64,000 nucleotides of DNA, taken from an uncultured archaeon (lineage in GTDB: Archaea; Asgardarchaeota; Heimdallarchaeia; Heimdallarchaeales; Kariarchaeaceae). The stretch is from the NCBI GenBank assembly GCA_964600735.1, contig CAZRLL010000003.1, forward strand, positions 20,544 to 84,543. The letters are read 5' to 3'. A program made the position numbers and the translations under genes. The notes under the pieces were generated by a model. That model saw only the letters and a list, made by a program, of their open reading frames with translations, was not told where the DNA came from and ran no database searches. Below, piece after piece: positions 5,470 to 54,015 of the stretch. The first letter of the stretch is position 1, and every line of letters starts with the position of its first letter.

Positions 5470-6348
5470 TCAGGCACAATAATCATTTAAAAATGATGAA
5501 ATTACTTCTGCTAGTGGTATTTCCTCATATTCCGCCTTATCGTAGACAATACCCTCAAAAATGCTTGTTTCAAGACTTACTACATTTGAAATAGGAATTT
5601 TCAAGTTAGTAAGTGTTAAAAAATCACCGGATGAAATAAACTTGTTTGCTTCGCCCCTTAATAATAGGTCTTTTTTATTCATTAATACAAGGATCGGGAT
5701 GGTTTGATCTCTGTATTGAATAACTCTTTCAAATGATTTTGCAACTTCAAGTAAATCATTTGAAGTTGCATCTATTATGAAAAAAATTGCATTTGATTGT
5801 TGGATAGCTGCCTCCCAAAGTTCCCAAAAATCTTGTTGGCCGCCCATATCTACTGTTTTTATTGTTGATTTACCTAATTTGATATGTTTTGTGGATTTTC
5901 CCATTGTTGGCACAGATGGGATGATAACAGAATCTCGTTCTGGAATAAGGGTTTCTAAATAACGAACAAGTGAGGTTTTTCCTGCTCTAGAGGGCCCAGT
6001 AATTGTTATTATTAAATCTCGATTATGAAGTTTAGAAAAGAGTGATTTTCTTATTTTTTTGAACAAGGACATTTTTTTTGAGTTGCGGATATAAAATGGT
6101 AACGGTTGAGTCTGGAGGTGTTCTGGTATATCTTCGGAGGATAATGCGATAGTATCCCCGAGATATTCTCCCTTTTCATCAAAATAAATAATACGTGTAT
6201 GATCCGAATGTACAATAGAATAGGCACCAATCCCCATATCAGTTGATTTTGATCTCACTCTAATTTCATCAATACTTAACATAATAGAATCAAAGCGACT
6301 ACATATATCACACTCTAATGTTCTGATTGTAATTACTGAATCCTGCAT
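5470..6348 (-). CDS. Arf-like small GTPase with extra N-terminal Cys2-His2 domain (paralog A)
   Basis: 292 aa; G1 GPSRAGKTS, switch I PTMG, G3 DMGGQQDFW, G4 NKKD; residues 1-95 carry C-x2-C ... H-x2-H; basic amphipathic stretch MSLFKKIRKSLFSKL just before the P-loop. Confidence 0.75.
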   Translation of the reverse strand: MQDSVITIRTLECDICSRFDSIMLSIDEIRVRSKSTDMGIGAYSIVHSDHTRIIYFDEKGEYLGDTIALSSEDIPEHLQTQPLPFYIRNSKKMSLFKKIRKSLFSKLHNRDLIITITGPSRAGKTSLVRYLETLIPERDSVIIPSVPTMGKSTKHIKLGKSTIKTVDMGGQQDFWELWEAAIQQSNAIFFIIDATSNDLLEVAKSFERVIQYRDQTIPILVLMNKKDLLLRGEANKFISSGDFLTLTNLKIPISNVVSLETSIFEGIVYDKAEYEEIPLAEVISSFLNDYCA

Positions 6349-20920: not shown

Positions 20921-21007
20921 CGAGTATGGTGGGATTCGAACCCACGACCCCTGGCTTACTCCATGAAATTTAGGAGGCCAGTGCTCTTCCAGCTGAGCTA
21001 CATACTC
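20921..21007 (-). tRNA. tRNA-Arg(CCT) with 14-nt canonical intron
   Basis: Reverse complement folds as GAGTATG-TA-GCTC..GAGC-A-CTGGC-CTCCTA[aatttcatggagta]A-GCCAG-GGGTC-GTGGG-TTCGAAT-CCCAC-CATACTC-G; intron 20957-20970; CTCC/GGAG central helix with two 3-nt bulges. Confidence 0.88.
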
Positions 21008-24089: not shown

Positions 24090-27000
24090 TACGAAACGCC
24101 TTGAGCGTAAGTGATCGTGGGCTAAACATTTCGCCGGAGCTCAACGCGCACACCCCGATTCTTTCTAACGGATCTTCTTTCCGTGCTCTCGTCCAGAATA
24201 GAACTTGGTAATCGTCACCGATCCCCAAGAGATAGGAGATTTTATTAATTAAATTAATTTATCTCTAATCTGCTATTCCAGAATGGGTTACTCTTTTTAA
24301 GGACAGCTTCGAGCTTAGATGCATTCAGCTCTTATCTGTAATGGCGTAGCTACCGGGCGATACCTTGTCAGATAACCCGTACACCAGAGGCCACATCAGC
24401 TCGTTCCTCTCGTACTGAAGCCAATTTACTTGCAATAACCCAACAGCCCAGTTAGATAGAAACCAACCTGTCTCACAACGGTCTGAACCCAGCTCACGTT
24501 CCCTATTAACGGGCGAACAACCCTACTCTAGGTGTCTTATGCAACACCAAGCGAGGAAGAGCCGACATCGAGGAAGCAAGCCGCGGGGTCAATATGTCCC
24601 ATTCGAGTCGCAACTCGAAGTGGAATAATCACCGTCATTGAATAATCATAATGCTGGGTATTCAACTTATGCGTTTACATCTGTCGGGTACTTCTCTTCT
24701 CGGGTCAATTGTTTAAGAGAACCTTACCTTGGTCCAACCATCAGCAAGATCATCGAATTTTTTCAAATCCTACTGCTGTGTGAATGTTAGGTTAGATATT
24801 CCTCTTCCCAAAATGACTTTGGAGAAGTTAAGTTATACCCGAAGTGATGTGTATATTACACATAAGCTTTACTACGTTTTTTTGGTGGAAAAGATCTTAC
24901 TAGAAGATCCTCGACAACAAAACAGATTTTAATGAAAAGTTAGAGGTAAAATGACTAAACCACTTATCATGTAAAAAATTACATGAATGTGTGAACTTTA
25001 GCCCGCGACAACTCTGTTACCCCTGAGGTAACTTTTCTGCCACCACCCACGCCAACTAAAAGCAATTGGATGGATCGCTAGGCCCTAGTTTCCTAACAGC
25101 GAGCATTATTGGAGTGCTCACAGTAAAGCCGACTTATGCCCTTGCACTCTACGGAGGATTTCTGTCCCTCCTGAGTCGACCTTTGGGCGCCTCTGTTTCC
25201 TTATCGGAGGCGTGCCGCCCCAGCCAAACTGTCCACCACCAGGTGTCCCCGTCGCAACGGGTGAGCCTAACCAATCTTCGAAGTTAGTGTTCCATTGTTG
25301 ACTCCACAGTACCCGGGGATACTGCTTCAAAGTCTCCTAACTACGCTCTGTACGAAAATCGAATAAACAACTGGAAGCTACAGTAAAGCTCTCAGGGTCT
25401 TCTCTTCCCAACTGGGCAATCCGGTCTGTTCGCCGGATCGCAGGTTCACTGGATTCTAGGCAGGGACAGTGGCAACCTCGTTGGTCCCTTCATGGACGTC
25501 GGTAATTATCCGACAAGGCATTTGCCTACCTTAAGAGAGTCATGGTTACTCCCGCTGTTAACCAGAGCTTAGCCCGGTTGAACCCGGATTTGACTTACTG
25601 GCACGGAGCAGGATTCACAAACTATACAAAGCTTTTCAGCGTAGCAGTTTGCTATGTTTTTGTTAAACAGTCGGGTTGCCTATGTTAGTGACACCTTCGC
25701 ACGCGTTAACATGTAAAGGCAGCGATTATCCCTAAGTTACTCGCCTAATTTGCCGAATTCCCTTGCCTACATTACTCCAAAAGATCTTAGCGTTCTACGC
25801 CTAAGGACACCCGTGTCGGTTTAGGTACGGACGCGCAGTATTAGAAGAAATCATTTTCATGGGCTTTTGGAAATCAACTTTACCTACCACTATTGGTGGG
25901 CCATTCGTAGTTTTATCCGGTTCTCAGCGCAACGCTACTCCCCGGATTTATGTACTTAGTCTGGACGACGATCCAGAAAAGCCTATCCGCAAGCGTCTGA
26001 TTCCTTCCTATTGTTGCCAACTTTCATGCGCGGTACGGGAATATGAACCCGTTTCCCTTTCGTCATAATCATATTAAGACTAGACTTAGGACCGACTTAC
26101 CCTGGGCCGATTGACGTTGCCCAGGAACCCTTGCCTTTTCGATCTATACGGTTCTCACGTATACTTCTGCCTACTACTACCAGGATCTGCACATCAGCAA
26201 GGTCCACAGGTTATCACCAACCTGCTTCACCCCTAACTGATCGAAAGTCTACCGGATCATACCTTGCGGTATGCCTTTGGGTATCGGGAGTCAGTTTTAG
26301 TCCCGTCCATTTTCAGGGCCGTAACGCTCGATGGTTAAACTAGTACGTACTTTTTAATGGATAGCTGTTTCTAAGCTTACCATGCCATTGTCTTAGCGAT
26401 ACGACGCCCTTCATTTTTACACTTAACTGACATTTAGGGCCCTTAACCCAAATCTAGCTTATTCGCTTCGCGGCGATCACCCTTACGGCGACCCGCCCGA
26501 CTGCAGGGGTCTACATAGATCTGACATTCGGAGTTAGATGATGTGGTGAGGATTTCACTCCCCATTCCGACATTGTCTGTACTCTACCTTCAGATCCTAT
26601 TCGCCCAACGCTGGACTGCGGCTCCACTTTGACTTTAATGTGCTATCAGGAGACTCGATTAGCCTTTGACTCCTAAACGCAGCTCAGAGGATCGAGTTGC
26701 ATATCAGAACCCCTTCGGTCCTCCACCGCGGTTTCCCGCGGCTTCAACCTGGCCACGCTTAGATCGTCTCCTTTCGCATCTTATCCGAGTGATTTCACGC
26801 CCTTTCAGACGTCGTCCCTCACATGCAAGCATGTTGCGGACTGATTGGTTTCCCTAAGACTTAGATATCACCTTGGTCTCACCACTCAGATAAACTCCCT
26901 GGCCAGTGTTTCAAGACTGACGTAATGACGCCGGTAAACTGAATTCCCGTTCGATCGTCACCAATCTTAGGTTCATTCAGTCTCTTTCCTTTCACGCCAT

Positions 27001-27572
27001 TACACACTTTAAGCACATAATTTCAAGCTCTTTTCACTGCGTTTTACCGCTACTTTTCACCTTTTACTCACGTTACTAGTTCTCTATCGGTCTGAGATTA
27101 ATATTTAGGTTTTCGAATTAGTTCTCGAAGTTTGGACGCAATTCCCAATGCGCCCTAGTCTGGGTTACAAAACTCATAGCAGCAGACTCACACCTACGGG
27201 GCTATCACCCTCTATGGCCCCCTTTTCCAAAGGAGTTCGGTTTATGTCTGGTAAGCGTTGGTTTTGACCCACAACACCACATCTATAATTTTTTTCAAAA
27301 TAATATTCGGTTTGACCTGTTTCCTGTTTACTCGCCGTTACTAAGGAAATCGCGATTGCTTTCTTTTCCTCCACCTACTTGAATGCTTTCGTTCGGTGGG
27401 TTCCCTTCCTCTAATGAGGATCTATATGCTTCTTGGACATATAGAAGAATCTTATTCGGGCATCTTAGGATCGAAGGCTGCCTGCGCCTACCCTAAGCTT
27501 ATCGCAGCTTGCCACGCCCTTCATCGGTTTCTCAGCCAAGGTATCCATTATGTGCTGTTTGGCAGAATCGTA
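24090..27572 (-). rRNA. rrl: 23S (LSU) rRNA, ends approximate (within about 20 nt), interrupted by a ~397-nt insertion
   Basis: Minus strand contains universal LSU blocks: GGATACCTTGGC...GATGAAGGGCGTGGCAAGCTGCGATAAGC near the 5' end, GACTGTTTAACAAAAACATAG, GGGGTAACAGAG, CCTCGATGTCGGCTC, GTTCAGACCGTTGTGAGACAGGTTGG, AGTACGAGAGGAAC, GCTGAATGCATCTAAGC. Confidence 0.95.
24595..24991 (-). other. Intervening sequence (probable intron) in the 23S rRNA helix-89 loop, no ORF
   Basis: The conserved loop ...GCGGGC-TAAAG-TTCA / TATTGAC-CCCGCGG... is split by 397 nt of AT-rich non-rRNA sequence; junction ambiguous by 2 nt because CA is repeated. Confidence 0.7.
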
Positions 27573-38083: not shown

Positions 38084-38171
38084 TGGACTGGACGGGATTT
38101 GAACCCGCGGCCGCTTCGGTTCTTGTAAAAAAATGCAAGCGAAGCGCTCTACCAGTCTGAGCTACCAGCCC
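38084..38171 (-). tRNA. tRNA-Ala(TGC) with 14-nt canonical intron
   Basis: GGGCTGG-TA-GCTC..GAGC-G-CTTCG-CTTGCA[tttttttacaagaa]C-CGAAG-CGGCC-GCGGG-TTCAAAT-CCCGT-CCAGTCC-A; G3:U70 alanine identity pair; intron 38121-38134; CTTG/CAAG central helix. Confidence 0.9.
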
Positions 38172-50906: not shown

Positions 50907-51194
50907 TTAGAATTCAGAGGAAAGCATTAATGTAAGGACACTTTTTTCGTCCTCGAATGATTTTACTAACCATATTTGATCGTTATCAACTGTTTCCAAA
51001 ACAATTAGGTATGCTTCCTCAGCTTCTTCAAATCTTAATACTCGTCTATCTAATTCATTAATTATTCTTTTAACCGATTTAACACCAATTTTCCTGATCA
51101 ATCCAGAACTTAAAATAATACCACCTAGAGGTGGAAAATCGGGATATTGCAATTTAATAAATGATGGTAGAGGTAAAATACTTCGTTTTTCCAT
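50907..51194 (-). CDS. Hypothetical small protein
   Basis: 95-aa ORF divergent from the GTPase gene; no motif recognised. Confidence 0.4.
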   Translation of the reverse strand: MEKRSILPLPSFIKLQYPDFPPLGGIILSSGLIRKIGVKSVKRIINELDRRVLRFEEAEEAYLIVLETVDNDQIWLVKSFEDEKSVLTLMLSSEF

Positions 51195-51382: not shown

Positions 51383-52267
51383 ATGATGGCATATAACCAA
51401 ATTGGAGAAGAAGAAATTCTTGTAATTAGAACATTAGAATGCGATTTATGCATGAGATTTGACTCGATAATGATTACCCGGGAAGAAATTGAAAAACGGG
51501 TGGAATCAAATTCATTGCAAATTGGTAGTCATCTTATTTCGCATCGGGATCATCTTCGGATTGTTTATTTCGATCGATTTGGTATTTACTTAGGAGATAC
51601 GATATCACTAAATACTGGGAATAATAAATTAGAGAATTTCGATAGGGAATTACAAATATTTCCCAAATATGAACAGAGGTTAATTAAAAGAATAAGAAAT
51701 AAACTGCTCAAGAAATTTCTATTGACCAAGCAAAGTATTTGTATTGTTGGTCCTTCATTTGCTGGAAAAACTTCTCTTACAATGTACCTTGAAACTGGAA
51801 TCCCTGAAAGGTATAGCAAAAGAATCAGCCATTCTCCAACGTTAGGGAAATCGGTTCGTAGATTTAGACTAGGTAAGTCTAAATTAACTGTATTTGATAT
51901 GGGGGGACAAAGAGATTTTTGGGCAGGATGGGGGGACAGTATTCAATATTCAGAAAAATTAATTTTTGTTATTGATGGAACTGCCAATAACAACAAAGAA
52001 GTAATTGATTCATTAAATTTAGTATTAAAAGAGAGGGGGGCTAGTAAACCAGTACTCGTGTTGAATAATAAAATGGATTTATTTCTCGATGGATATTCCA
52101 CTGAATTTTCAGCTTCGAGTGATTTTATCTCACAATTAGATGCTGTTGATCCAAAATATATTTGGATGCTCGAAGTTTCCGTATTTAACGGAATCTGTTA
52201 CAATTATGGGGGTAAGAAAGAAGAAACTACACTTGCTGATGTAATTTCTGATTTTTTAGAATTTTAA
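51383..52267 (+). CDS. Arf-like small GTPase with extra N-terminal Cys2-His2 domain (paralog B)
   Basis: 294 aa; GPSFAGKTS, PTLG, DMGGQRDFW, NNKMD; the N-terminal ~95 aa is co-linear with paralog A (IRTLECDLCMRFDSIM ... HRDHLRIVYFD..G.YLGDTI). Confidence 0.75.
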   Translation: MMAYNQIGEEEILVIRTLECDLCMRFDSIMITREEIEKRVESNSLQIGSHLISHRDHLRIVYFDRFGIYLGDTISLNTGNNKLENFDRELQIFPKYEQRLIKRIRNKLLKKFLLTKQSICIVGPSFAGKTSLTMYLETGIPERYSKRISHSPTLGKSVRRFRLGKSKLTVFDMGGQRDFWAGWGDSIQYSEKLIFVIDGTANNNKEVIDSLNLVLKERGASKPVLVLNNKMDLFLDGYSTEFSASSDFISQLDAVDPKYIWMLEVSVFNGICYNYGGKKEETTLADVISDFLEF

Positions 52268-52646
52268 ATTGGGAGCTGAAATAATTTGAAAATTAAATTA
52301 ATTCTCAGTTTAATTTGATATTTTTCAACGAAAAGAGGAAAATCTCAAAATGAGAAAATAAAATATCATTTTAGATGACTGGAACCATATTAATAATTCT
52401 AACAGAGGGTTATGAACAGTTTACATGATTGGGATCACTGGAAATGCAATTAATCTTTTAGATATGGTTGAAATCCCACCTAATTTTTCTTCTACTGACC
52501 CGATAATTATTTTCGAAAATATTGTTGTCATGGACGAAAAAGTATATACGCGAGAATATTCGTGATCGCACGATTTGCAGAAAAGATTGCTTCCATGATA
52601 AGCTGATCTTTTATTGCTAGTGTTTTATTTATAACATATTAGTGGT

Positions 52647-53048
52647 TTGATAGTCAATATATACTTGAAGCCAATAATTGTTCTTATGACTTTACCAAAA
52701 TTGCAGTATGTTCAATTTGTAGAAGTTCATGGTGAGATGGCAGAGGTTTACCAACAATTTCTTAGAAAATTAATCTCGGCTTACAAATCAATGAATTTCA
52801 GCAAAAAATGGGTTGTTTATGAAAATTCGTTTTGTATCGTTGAAGATAGTAGAGAATTTATTTTTATACGTGAGTTAGATGCATGGTCTGACTTAGATGG
52901 TATTTCAAAAGAGGATCCATTAACAAAAATCATGGCAGATGTATATGGTGAAAGTGATGCTTTACAGTGGATGGAAATAGTTCGCCGAGCAGTGAAGAAA
53001 ATATCTACATGTGTATATTCAAAAATACCAGAGCTCTCTCTAGATTAA
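52647..53048 (+). CDS. Hypothetical protein (likely true start ATG 52686)
   Basis: 133-aa ORF (120 aa from ATG 52686); small alpha/beta-looking protein, no motif recognised. Confidence 0.4.
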   Translation: MIVNIYLKPIIVLMTLPKLQYVQFVEVHGEMAEVYQQFLRKLISAYKSMNFSKKWVVYENSFCIVEDSREFIFIRELDAWSDLDGISKEDPLTKIMADVYGESDALQWMEIVRRAVKKISTCVYSKIPELSLD

Positions 53049-53214
53049 TAATGTAAGGATGTGGGAGCATATCAGACGATTTAAATGATGAACTTGCTAT
53101 AAGCGTTTAATTTTATCAACCATTATTCATAAAATATTCTTATGTAATATATGGCATATTAATCATATTAATATTGGAATAAATTAAAGAAATATTGAAT
53201 CGAGGGTTTGTTTA

Positions 53215-54015
53215 GTGTTAAAAGAGGCATCGTTGATTTCTAGTTCAGGAATACCAATTTGGGTTCGATCAACTGGTCCTTCAATCGTAGATGGGATTCT
53301 TGCAGGGGCTATGCTGGGCGCATTGTCAACATTTTCATCAGAAGTAACAGGTCAACTTATACGAACTGTTGAAATGAGCGATGGTTTTAAGTTACACATT
53401 CGACCATTTGGAGATGGCGATATAAATTTAGCAATTGTCGGTGATGAGCAGATTCTAAGTGACCCTGAACTATTGAAAATTATTGATACACTCGATGATC
53501 ATATCAATTTAATGCTTAGTGATGATTCGATTGTTGATTTGCATGATCACCAAACTACATCAATATATTTAGAAAAATCAATTACACTACTCGATGGATG
53601 GTTTGGATCAAAAATATTTATCCAGGCTACTATTCAAAAAGCAAGAGATGAAGAAATTGTTGAAATTTCAAGTCAAATAGCTATCATGGCATCACGTTTT
53701 CTTCAGGAAAATATTGCTGTAATGATTCTGGACGCATCTTTGGAAGCCTTGTACACATCAACCTCAAAAAATATTGGAGAAAGCCGATTAGAATCATTGC
53801 AAAGGCATTTTAAGGGTTGGATAAGAGTTTCATCGCATGTAGATCAGCTACTACCTGAAATTATCTTCTTTAATGACTTTTGTGTAGGAATCAAAGCTTT
53901 GAAACGTTTTTATGTGATATGCGCGATTGAATGGACTGGATCGCTTGGGGGGGCTGAAATTACAAGCAAGGTTAGATCATGGTTGTCAATATTAAATCGA
54001 AGGTTAGGTCCGTAA
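53215..54015 (+). CDS. Two-lobed longin/roadblock-like protein (candidate small-GTPase regulator)
   Basis: 266 aa, GTG start; N-lobe SSSGIPIWVRS..ILAGAMLGALSTFSSEV..GFKLHIRPFGDGDINLAIVGDE; second similar hydrophobic pattern from about residue 150 (IAVMILDASLEALYTS...). Confidence 0.4.
   Translation: MLKEASLISSSGIPIWVRSTGPSIVDGILAGAMLGALSTFSSEVTGQLIRTVEMSDGFKLHIRPFGDGDINLAIVGDEQILSDPELLKIIDTLDDHINLMLSDDSIVDLHDHQTTSIYLEKSITLLDGWFGSKIFIQATIQKARDEEIVEISSQIAIMASRFLQENIAVMILDASLEALYTSTSKNIGESRLESLQRHFKGWIRVSSHVDQLLPEIIFFNDFCVGIKALKRFYVICAIEWTGSLGGAEITSKVRSWLSILNRRLGP

Follow-up and report, generated by a model that had tools for sequence, protein, structure and literature searches.

Does an Arf-like GTPase of an uncultured archaeon form a self-contained switch with a putative regulator encoded about 1 kb away? 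The question is raised by a stretch of 64,000 nucleotides from a member of the Kariarchaeaceae (Heimdallarchaeia; contig CAZRLL010000003.1, positions 20,544 to 84,543), referred to here as the window. Within it, the gene for a small GTPase with an added N-terminal Cys2-His2 domain (the N-domain) lies on the same strand as a gene for a 266-residue protein with two putative longin/roadblock-type halves. An initial annotation, made from the DNA letters, read this proximity as a candidate self-contained GTPase switch. The explanation favored on balance by the follow-up analysis is that two things lie side by side: an ArfR-like GTPase with a zinc domain and an independent housekeeping protein of longin/roadblock type. 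The window has a G+C content of ~33%; its housekeeping genes and its 23S rRNA are archaeal. The argument turns on three genes, each an open reading frame (ORF) given with its product length in amino acids (aa):

51383-52267, + strand: GTPase-A, 294 aa, an Arf-related small GTPase with an N-terminal extension
5470-6348, - strand: GTPase-B, a 292-aa paralog with the N-domain, helix and G-domain architecture of GTPase-A
53215-54015, + strand: the 266-aa protein, putatively longin plus roadblock

A small family of Arf-related GTPases

GTPase-A consists of a G domain preceded by ~115 extra residues upstream of the P-loop. Its parts are arranged as follows:

51410-51616, + strand: core of the N-domain (residues 10-78), with C20 and C23 (51440-51451) and H54 and H57 (51542-51553), a probable zinc site
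51617-51673, + strand: variable linker (residues 79-97), predicted to be disordered, with poorly conserved alignment columns
51674-51724, + strand: basic helix (residues 98-114, RLIKRIRNKLLKKFLLT), directly before the G domain
51728-52264, + strand: G domain (residues 116-294), with motifs G1 to G5 intact, Gln176 and a P-E-R insertion before switch I

All motifs quoted in the initial annotation are found in the protein. In the G domain these are GPSFAGKTS (the P-loop, residues 123-131), PTLG (with T153), DMGGQRDFW (with D172 to Q176) and NKMD (residues 229-232); ahead of it are C20-x2-C23, H54-x2-H57 and RLIKRIRNKLLKKFLL (residues 98-113). The assignment to an Arf/Sar-type G domain holds as well. 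The Pfam Arf model (PF00025) covers residues 110-236 above its cut-off (E 4e-13; 49.7 bits against 22.3), with SR-beta, Roc, Rag and Ras as weaker matches, while NCBIfam gives a generic small_GTP domain only, below that model's cut-off. The closest solved relatives are ArfR proteins: the best PDB sequence matches are 8OUN and 8OUM at E 4.7e-9, followed by Arl3, Arf1, Arl8, Sar1 and 8OUL. Entries 8OUM and 8OUN are GerdArfR1 and 8OUL is HodArfR1, all of them Asgard ArfR proteins (Vargova et al.). Judged by similarity ranking, the GTPase family is Arf-related and ArfR-like.

A reference to "both GTPases" in the initial annotation was also right, as a second full-length copy, GTPase-B, is encoded in the window. 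It shares 45% identity with GTPase-A over the full length, carries the pattern CDIC...HSDH and matches Pfam Arf at E 7e-16 (58.6 bits). Across a 24-member alignment the invariant G-domain residues are G123, G128, K129, T130, S131, E142, R143, T153, D172, G174, G175, Q176, W180, W183, N229, K230 and D232. Since the P-loop, T153, DxGGQ and NKxD are invariant, the family is, as judged from its alignment, one of functional, catalytically competent switches that keep the catalytic Gln. A six-residue family-specific insertion between helix 1 and switch I contains an invariant P-E-R (residues 141-143; 51803-51811 of the window) and is missing from GerdArfR1 and Arl3 in the alignments. The family is small: a collection of 5.8 billion proteins yields 25 clusters, all from Heimdallarchaeota/Kariarchaeaceae, and the member in LC_2 is HeimC2_01660 (OLS29175.1).

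The N-domain and its stand-alone copies

In an AlphaFold model of residues 1-118, the core of the N-domain (residues 11-70) has a predicted local distance difference test score (pLDDT) above 90. The modeled order is β-β-α-β-β-β, with strands at 12-16 and 28-32, a helix at 33-41 and strands at 48-53, 57-63 and 69-76; the CxxC falls in the β1-β2 turn and the HxxH in the β3-β4 turn. Of 42 family sequences, with a mean identity of ~50%, 38 carry the pattern C-x2-C-x(28-31)-H-x2-H-x-R, and the four that lack it are N-terminally truncated or frameshifted. Wherever covered, C20, C23, H54, D56, H57 and R59 are invariant, as are R16, T17, D27, S28, Y62, F63 and the run Y69-L-G-D72. Conservation of the Cys/His pattern is far beyond chance. 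The domain core is acidic, with a mean charge of -3.

In zinc ribbons, ligand pairs sit in the turns of two β-hairpins. The ligand pairs of the N-domain likewise occupy the turns of two predicted hairpins, and the domain most likely binds metal, probably a structural zinc, through two β-hairpin knuckles. No structural neighbor was found for it. The N-domain has no Pfam or NCBIfam family, a profile search of PDB sequences gave chance matches only, and Foldseek against PDB and BFVD returned nothing below E 0.06, with no match related to longins, ArfGAP or zinc ribbons.

A profile search with the N-domain finds it without a G domain in P0055, P0056 (LCGC14_0175690), P0058, P0059, P0061 and P0063. 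These proteins are 72-161 aa long and come from Heimdall assemblies and from metagenomes of marine sediment. They consist of the N-domain alone or with unrelated tails, and all keep the four ligands. Because such proteins exist, the N-domain is, on the evidence of domain composition, an autonomous module. The added domain that the initial annotation had described is thus real and separable, and its Cys2-His2 set is conserved in homologs (38/42). Copies for which the surrounding contig was inspected are these, none with a G domain:

L010:6001-6405: P0056
L013:6001-6486: P0059
L012:6001-6219: P0061

The L010 and L013 copies are embedded in long runs of small same-strand ORFs that match no family, one run including a 711-aa AAA ATPase; the third copy follows a DNA ligase gene on a 370-kb Heimdall contig. 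Judged by gene organization alone, the L010 and L013 contigs resemble viral DNA or another kind of mobile element in Heimdall archaea. Searches of IMG/VR and INPHARED for the stand-alone N-domain gave nothing, and PHROGs and tblastn returned generic ATPase matches only for the neighboring AAA ATPase.

The basic helix and a possible mechanism

Between the N-domain and the G domain, linker residues 80-89 have a pLDDT below 50, and AlphaFold predicts a helix at residues 99-114. In all 23 full-length homologs the 20 residues upstream of the P-loop are net positive (+3 to +7), and residues 4-134 of the HodArfR1 chain in 8OUL align to residues 101-234 of GTPase-A, thus covering the helix. The initial annotation had described a basic amphipathic stretch at the position of the Arf helix. 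Its charge and position are borne out by the model, the homologs and the 8OUL alignment, whereas its amphipathic character proves only moderate. The helix is Arf-like in its position relative to the G domain and not in its position in the chain, in which at least 95 residues precede it. Membrane binding by the helix is plausible by analogy with Arf proteins. In P0055 and P0056, a C-terminal basic-hydrophobic tail (PRKRGKIITFFTQRFSTK) resembles the pre-P-loop helix of the GTPases, and this likeness in two stand-alone proteins suggests that the transferable unit may comprise zinc domain, linker and basic helix together.

The mechanism that we infer for the GTPase, including its metal binding and helix gating, would run as follows. 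The family has acquired a three-part N-terminal unit made up of an acidic Cys2-His2 domain of ~67 residues, a short disordered linker and an always-basic helix. GTP binding would push the interswitch out and free the basic helix, as in Arf and ArfR, and the freed helix would go to a membrane or a partner. Release of the helix may also alter the freedom or exposure of the zinc domain, which would act as a protein-interaction module; such a role is consistent with the occurrence of the domain alone or with only a basic tail.

The 266-aa protein

Proteins of the longin/roadblock fold family form dimeric platforms for small GTPases, acting as guanine nucleotide exchange factors (GEFs) or GTPase-activating proteins (GAPs). 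The 266-aa protein, which the initial annotation had read as a tandem of such domains, has 17 close homologs at 55-100% identity. When 1.84 billion representatives were searched exhaustively with a profile, four genuine clusters of the family emerged and only three distant members were added; two further profile matches were rejected as repeat artefacts. No second paralogous family was detected in the same collection. The predicted secondary structure runs ββ-α-βββ-α, two linker helices and α-ββ-α-βββ-α. It agrees with the two-lobed impression of the initial annotation, in a low-confidence model (pLDDT 47) built from a shallow alignment:

53215-53529, + strand: N-half (residues 1-105), ββ-α(25-45)-βββ-α(84-101), longin-type, with the motif sGIPIWvRS.G
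53650-54015, + strand: C-half (residues 146-266 plus the stop codon), roadblock-type, α-ββ-α-βββ-α

In the C-half, helices are predicted at 148-159, 189-206 and 247-264 and strands at 167-172 and within 216-239, with a pLDDT of about 60-69. Foldseek with the model of the whole protein matched almost only longin/roadblock proteins, among them BLOC-3 HPS1/HPS4 (E 7e-4), the C-terminal domains of RagA/C, MON1A/CCZ1, Fuzzy/Inturned, FLCN/FNIP, LAMTOR2/3 (probability 0.99; template-modeling (TM) score 0.51-0.58, target-normalized), LC7/km23 and AP sigma. No Pfam family, Robl_LC7 and Longin included, scores above threshold, and a profile search of PDB sequences with the family gave chance matches only. 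Pfam PF19036 (Fuz_longin_1, the first longin domain of FUZ, MON1 and HPS1) appears below threshold in 2 of 15 members, with a best E of 0.0015; in P0043, residues 10-78 align to model positions 8-72 in the correct register, at 13 bits against a cut-off of 26.1 bits.

Profile comparison by hhalign points in the same direction. The first longin domains of Mon1 (human, fly and Chaetomium), Fuzzy (human and mouse) and HPS1 (human), collected from PDB matches, align to the N-half with P 1.5e-4 to 4e-4 and a probability of 35-52%. The alignment is anchored on sGIPIWvRS.G against aGKPIwSRhG plus the following helix. Single-sequence controls (roadblocks, other longins, CheY and thioredoxin) gave P 0.04-0.5, and the score of 28.5 exceeded those of all 150 column-permuted target alignments (mean 10.7; maximum 17.9-21.1). 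Comparisons of the halves with DYNLRB1, LAMTOR2/3, SEC22B and AP2S1 were uninformative. These lines are individually weak and share one motif, yet they converge, and we infer that the 266-aa protein is probably a longin plus a roadblock domain. The tandem reading is therefore retained as the best fit, held back by the poor model and the sub-threshold profile matches. Kinship to the tri-longin RabGEFs is a lead only, as homology and motif convergence are both possible; a literature search found no paper connecting "tri-longin" with archaea.

The 266-aa protein probably regulates some small GTPase, and nothing ties it to GTPase-A specifically. In L003, a locus from a close relative, it is the most conserved protein of the neighborhood (85%, against 65% for the GTPase, 72% for G6PD and 50% for EMG1), which points to an essential role of its own. 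Two genes upstream of its most distant homolog, a 160-aa ORF without a Pfam match (L009:7549-8031, + strand) has a β-β-α-β-β-β hydrophobic pattern (SMFISAINNFSQEIF helix) and aligns weakly to the N-half in hhalign (P 0.0036); possibly a further single protein of longin/roadblock type is encoded here.

Do the two genes travel together?

The three ORFs at the locus, namely GTPase-A, a 133-aa ORF and the 266-aa protein, have the coordinates given in the initial annotation and share one strand in the ORF listing. The sequence between the two main genes contains:

52268-52646, no strand: intergenic gap, a probable DJ-1/PfpI relic, with fragments at 52375-52413 and 52571-52600
52647-53048, + strand: 133-aa ORF, its true start likely M14 at 52686, a conserved neighbor of the 266-aa gene in close relatives

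The intergenic gaps around the GTPase-A, 133-aa and 266-aa genes measure 380, 166 and 125 bp, distances that make an operon unlikely. The 380-bp gap is probably what remains of a DJ-1/PfpI gene that decayed there, through recent decay or an internal deletion. Its fragments, found by tblastn with weak E-values, are collinear with DJ-1 (13 N-terminal aa at 69% and 10 C-terminal aa at 80%), and the argument is positional, in that DJ-1/PfpI is intact at the equivalent position in L003, L004 and L008. Homologs of the 133-aa ORF occur in L003 (72%) and, at 51-52%, in L004 and L008, where the ORF and the 266-aa gene lie on opposite strands. The ORF has no match in Pfam, NCBIfam or PADLOC, and PADLOC gave no link to defence systems.

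Linkage was assessed in 10 distinct loci with the 266-aa gene, the window included, and in two distinct GTPase loci without it; a scan of reference genomes contributed three loci and a metagenome scan one. The GTPase and 266-aa genes are adjacent (within ~1.5 kb) in four of the 10: the window, L003, L004 and L008. The last two have the GTPase on the opposite strand, and a DJ-1/PfpI gene (a relic in the window) and the 133-aa homolog always stand between the pair. Elsewhere the 266-aa gene follows EF-1alpha (L001/L002 and L015), directly follows 6PGD (L007), precedes EMG1 (L016) or lies near a thermosome gene (L009, where the protein is 30% identical), and the available flanking sequence holds the GTPase gene in none of these loci. 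The reverse is seen in LC_2 (L017) and the related L005/L006, where no 266-aa gene lies within 10 kb of the GTPase, which adjoins an RPA-like gene and a G6PD/6PGD pair. In sample ERZ27283524 the two genes are on separate contigs, and GTPase-B has no 266-aa-like gene nearby. The conserved neighbors of the 266-aa gene are EMG1/Nep1, EF-1alpha, DJ-1, the ribosomal proteins S7 and L16, YhbY and S19e, and no GTPase is among them.

The GTPase thus travels with G6PD/6PGD, and the 266-aa gene with EMG1, EF-1alpha and DJ-1. Because each is tied to a different housekeeping block elsewhere, the window appears as a junction of two blocks. The idea of a self-contained switch is not supported by this comparison, given adjacency in four of 10 loci, strand flips, intervening genes and linkage broken in several loci, LC_2 among them. 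Recurrent synteny, which the initial annotation had named as a check, is in substance absent, as adjacency occurs only in one set of close relatives. These observations agree with the published remark that Asgard GTPases as a rule share no operon with genes for roadblock or longin proteins (Tran et al., PMC10933270).

A further ORF, of 91-95 aa and without family matches, is a conserved neighbor of the G6PD/6PGD pair in Kariarchaeaceae-type loci, L003, L005 and L017 (LC_2) among them; in the window (50907-51194, - strand) it is divergent from the GTPase-A gene.

Weighing the explanations

Against two independent neighbors stands the possibility of a dedicated switch and regulator in the style of MglA-MglB or Rag-Ragulator, whose proximity would reflect co-function. 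It would explain why the genes lie within 1-1.5 kb of each other in the window, L003, L004 and L008 and why both families are confined to one Heimdall/Kariarchaeaceae clade, and small GTPases are commonly regulated by longin/roadblock platforms (PMC10933270). The flipped strand in L004 and L008, the DJ-1 and 133-aa genes in between, gaps of 166-380 bp and the lack of linkage in L001/L002, L007, L009, L015, L016, L005/L006 and L017 all speak against it, as do the absence of such a neighbor from GTPase-B, the unrelated housekeeping genes that share the block in the same conserved order, and the published remark that Asgard GTPases generally lie outside such operons (PMC10933270). A dedicated pair is accordingly unlikely. 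The 266-aa protein might instead be a translation or ribosome-biogenesis factor whose α/β fold is only superficially longin/roadblock-like, and no GTPase regulator at all. Its conserved neighbors (EMG1/Nep1, EF-1alpha, S7, L16, YhbY and S19e), its top rank in conservation in L003 (85%), the low-confidence model and the lack of a Pfam match above threshold would all fit; however, three weak lines converge on longin/roadblock, specifically on first domains of Mon1/Fuzzy type, and in archaeal housekeeping clusters function is poorly predicted by gene order, which leaves a ribosomal role improbable.

For the N-domain, one alternative holds that it is a shrunken, zinc-stapled longin/roadblock core acting as an intramolecular regulatory platform, so that the protein would be another Asgard fusion of known type. 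In the model, its β-β-α-β-β-β order plus the C-terminal helix equals the longin/roadblock core order (topology from PMC10933270), and longin is among the N-terminal additions of Asgard Arf-like proteins (Zhu et al., PMC11914678). Foldseek nevertheless gave no longin/roadblock match (best E 0.56, TM below 0.3), an hhalign comparison between the N-domain profile and the 266-aa family reached a probability of 0.1%, the central helix is only 9 residues long and a longin is about twice as large as the N-domain; this origin is doubtful. Familiar cases of a zinc module joined to GAP activity are the zinc finger and arginine finger of ArfGAP and the GAP region of ARD1/TRIM23, and by analogy the N-domain could be a cis-acting GAP in which a zinc module presents an invariant arginine (R59 or R16). 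R59 lies two residues past the last His, R16, D27, S28, D56 and D72 are invariant too, and there are more conserved polar residues than a structural zinc site alone requires. Yet the predicted fold and the spacing of the ligands differ from those of ArfGAP (C-x2-C-x16-C-x2-C), no structural GAP match was found, the domain exists without a G domain and with no small GTPase called beside it in the three loci inspected, and Gln176 is kept, as in GTPases that need a trans-acting GAP. A cis-GAP is thus very unlikely. Little credence is likewise given to a broader proposal that joins the two genes: the 266-aa family would be a two-domain archaeal relative, possibly a precursor, of tri-longin RabGEFs and a GEF/GAP platform for zinc-domain ArfR GTPases, the Cys2-His2 domain and helix would form a docking or membrane unit, and mobile elements of Heimdall archaea would carry stand-alone copies to interfere with the host switch.

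Several points also weigh against the favored explanation of two independent neighbors, a zinc-domain ArfR-like GTPase beside a longin/roadblock-type protein. The four ligands of the N-domain are brought together solely in predicted secondary structure, any docking of the basic helix on the G domain is putative, and the helix is moderately amphipathic, not consistently above shuffled sequences in a hydrophobic-moment test. Foldseek can mislead with a model of pLDDT 47, and in hhalign the two halves of the 266-aa protein resemble neither each other nor single roadblock sequences. PF19036 does not reach its cut-off, and BRCA-2_OB1 is equally "significant" in 7 of 15 members; that match, on the linker helices, was judged spurious, and E-values near 1e-3 are therefore unreliable here. 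A shared narrow clade and four adjacent loci, finally, would also fit a functional link between the two genes.

Implications

Ideas on the Asgard origin of eukaryotic membrane trafficking give a central place to GTPases of the Arf family and to regulators of longin/roadblock type. A Cys2-His2 domain ahead of an Arf-type helix offers a handle for asking what Asgard Arf-like proteins bind. Should the 266-aa protein prove to be related to Mon1/Fuzzy, the origin of a eukaryotic GEF family would move back into the Heimdallarchaeia. The negative result on linkage is useful in itself: here, proximity of genes does not reveal the regulator of a given Asgard GTPase.

Other features of the window

A complete archaeal 23S rRNA gene lies at 24092-27569 (- strand) and accounts for a bump in G+C at 24-28 kb. 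At 3478 nt against the 2987 positions of the model, it contains insertions. The 16S and 5S genes were not found within the 64-kb window. The tRNA at 20921-21007 (- strand) is labeled tRNA-Pyl (cta) by ARAGORN; in the Rfam alignment 16 inserted nt immediately follow the anticodon loop (CUCCUAA), and because of this insertion the gene most likely encodes a tRNA-Arg(CCU) interrupted by an intron, rather than a suppressor. Another tRNA, found by Rfam only at 38084-38171 (- strand; 88 nt), is probably also intron-bearing.

Comparison with known systems

Like zinc ribbons and zinc knuckles, the N-domain has four conserved Cys/His ligands, with pairs in two predicted hairpin turns, and it differs in that no zinc-ribbon family or structure matched it. 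A classical C2H2 finger was considered and rejected: such fingers have the pattern C-x2-4-C-x12-H-x3-5-H, with ~12 residues between the Cys and His pairs, and a ββα fold, whereas the N-domain has a spacing of 28-31, an H-x2-H pair, five strands in a β-β-α-β-β-β order and no zf-C2H2 Pfam match. In eukaryotes, TRIM23/ARD1 combines a zinc-binding N-terminal region with a C-terminal Arf domain, an arrangement resembled by the metal-binding N-terminal part predicted here and the Arf-type G domain that follows it. The RING and B-box of TRIM23/ARD1 are unrelated to the N-domain, no homology was detected, and lineage and size differ.

With MglA-MglB and Rag-Ragulator the locus shares the concept of a small GTPase with a dimeric roadblock/longin regulator, and the model of the C-half of the 266-aa protein matches LAMTOR2/3 and LC7. 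It departs from them in having no conserved operon or co-orientation and no Robl_LC7 Pfam match. The tri-longin RabGEFs (Mon1/Ccz1, Fuzzy/Inturned and HPS1/HPS4) are among the top Foldseek matches of the 266-aa protein; they resemble it in their tandem longin/roadblock-type domains and in the G-x-P-[IL]-[WFY]-x-R-x-G hairpin and next helix of its N-half. Unlike RabGEF subunits, which have three domains and 400-700 aa, it has two domains in 266 aa, stays below the PF19036 threshold and lacks a detectable paralogous partner subunit. Longin domains of Heimdallarchaeia with GAP-type "GP" motifs have been discussed (PMC12290439); in contrast to these, the 266-aa protein has G-x-P, as do Mon1 and Fuzzy.

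The initial annotation could place the architecture in no described family, which overstates the case, as extra N-terminal domains on Asgard Arf-like GTPases are known in general (PMC11914678, PMC10933270). Asgard Arf-like proteins vary at the N-terminus, where some carry an additional domain, for example a longin (Zhu et al. 2025, PMC11914678); fusions of longin or roadblock domains to GTPases have likewise been described in Asgard archaea (Tran et al. 2024, PMC10933270). Such fusions and GTPase-A have in common an Arf/Rag-like G domain with an additional N-terminal globular domain. In GTPase-A this addition is a Cys2-His2 domain of ~67 residues with no detectable similarity to theirs and with stand-alone copies. 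In the literature searched, this Cys2-His2 domain, its autonomy and its combination with an internal basic helix were not found described. In the ArfR/AArf GTPases of Heimdallarchaeia, a nucleotide-gated N-terminal helix is established (bioRxiv 10.1101/2024.02.28.582541; PMC11914678). The GTPase family described here shares with GerdArfR1 and HodArfR1 the PTxG, DxGGQ and NKxD motifs, the catalytic Gln and a helix immediately before the G domain, and it is set apart by ~95 extra N-terminal residues (the Cys2-His2 domain and linker), which make the helix internal, and by its six-residue P-E-R insertion.

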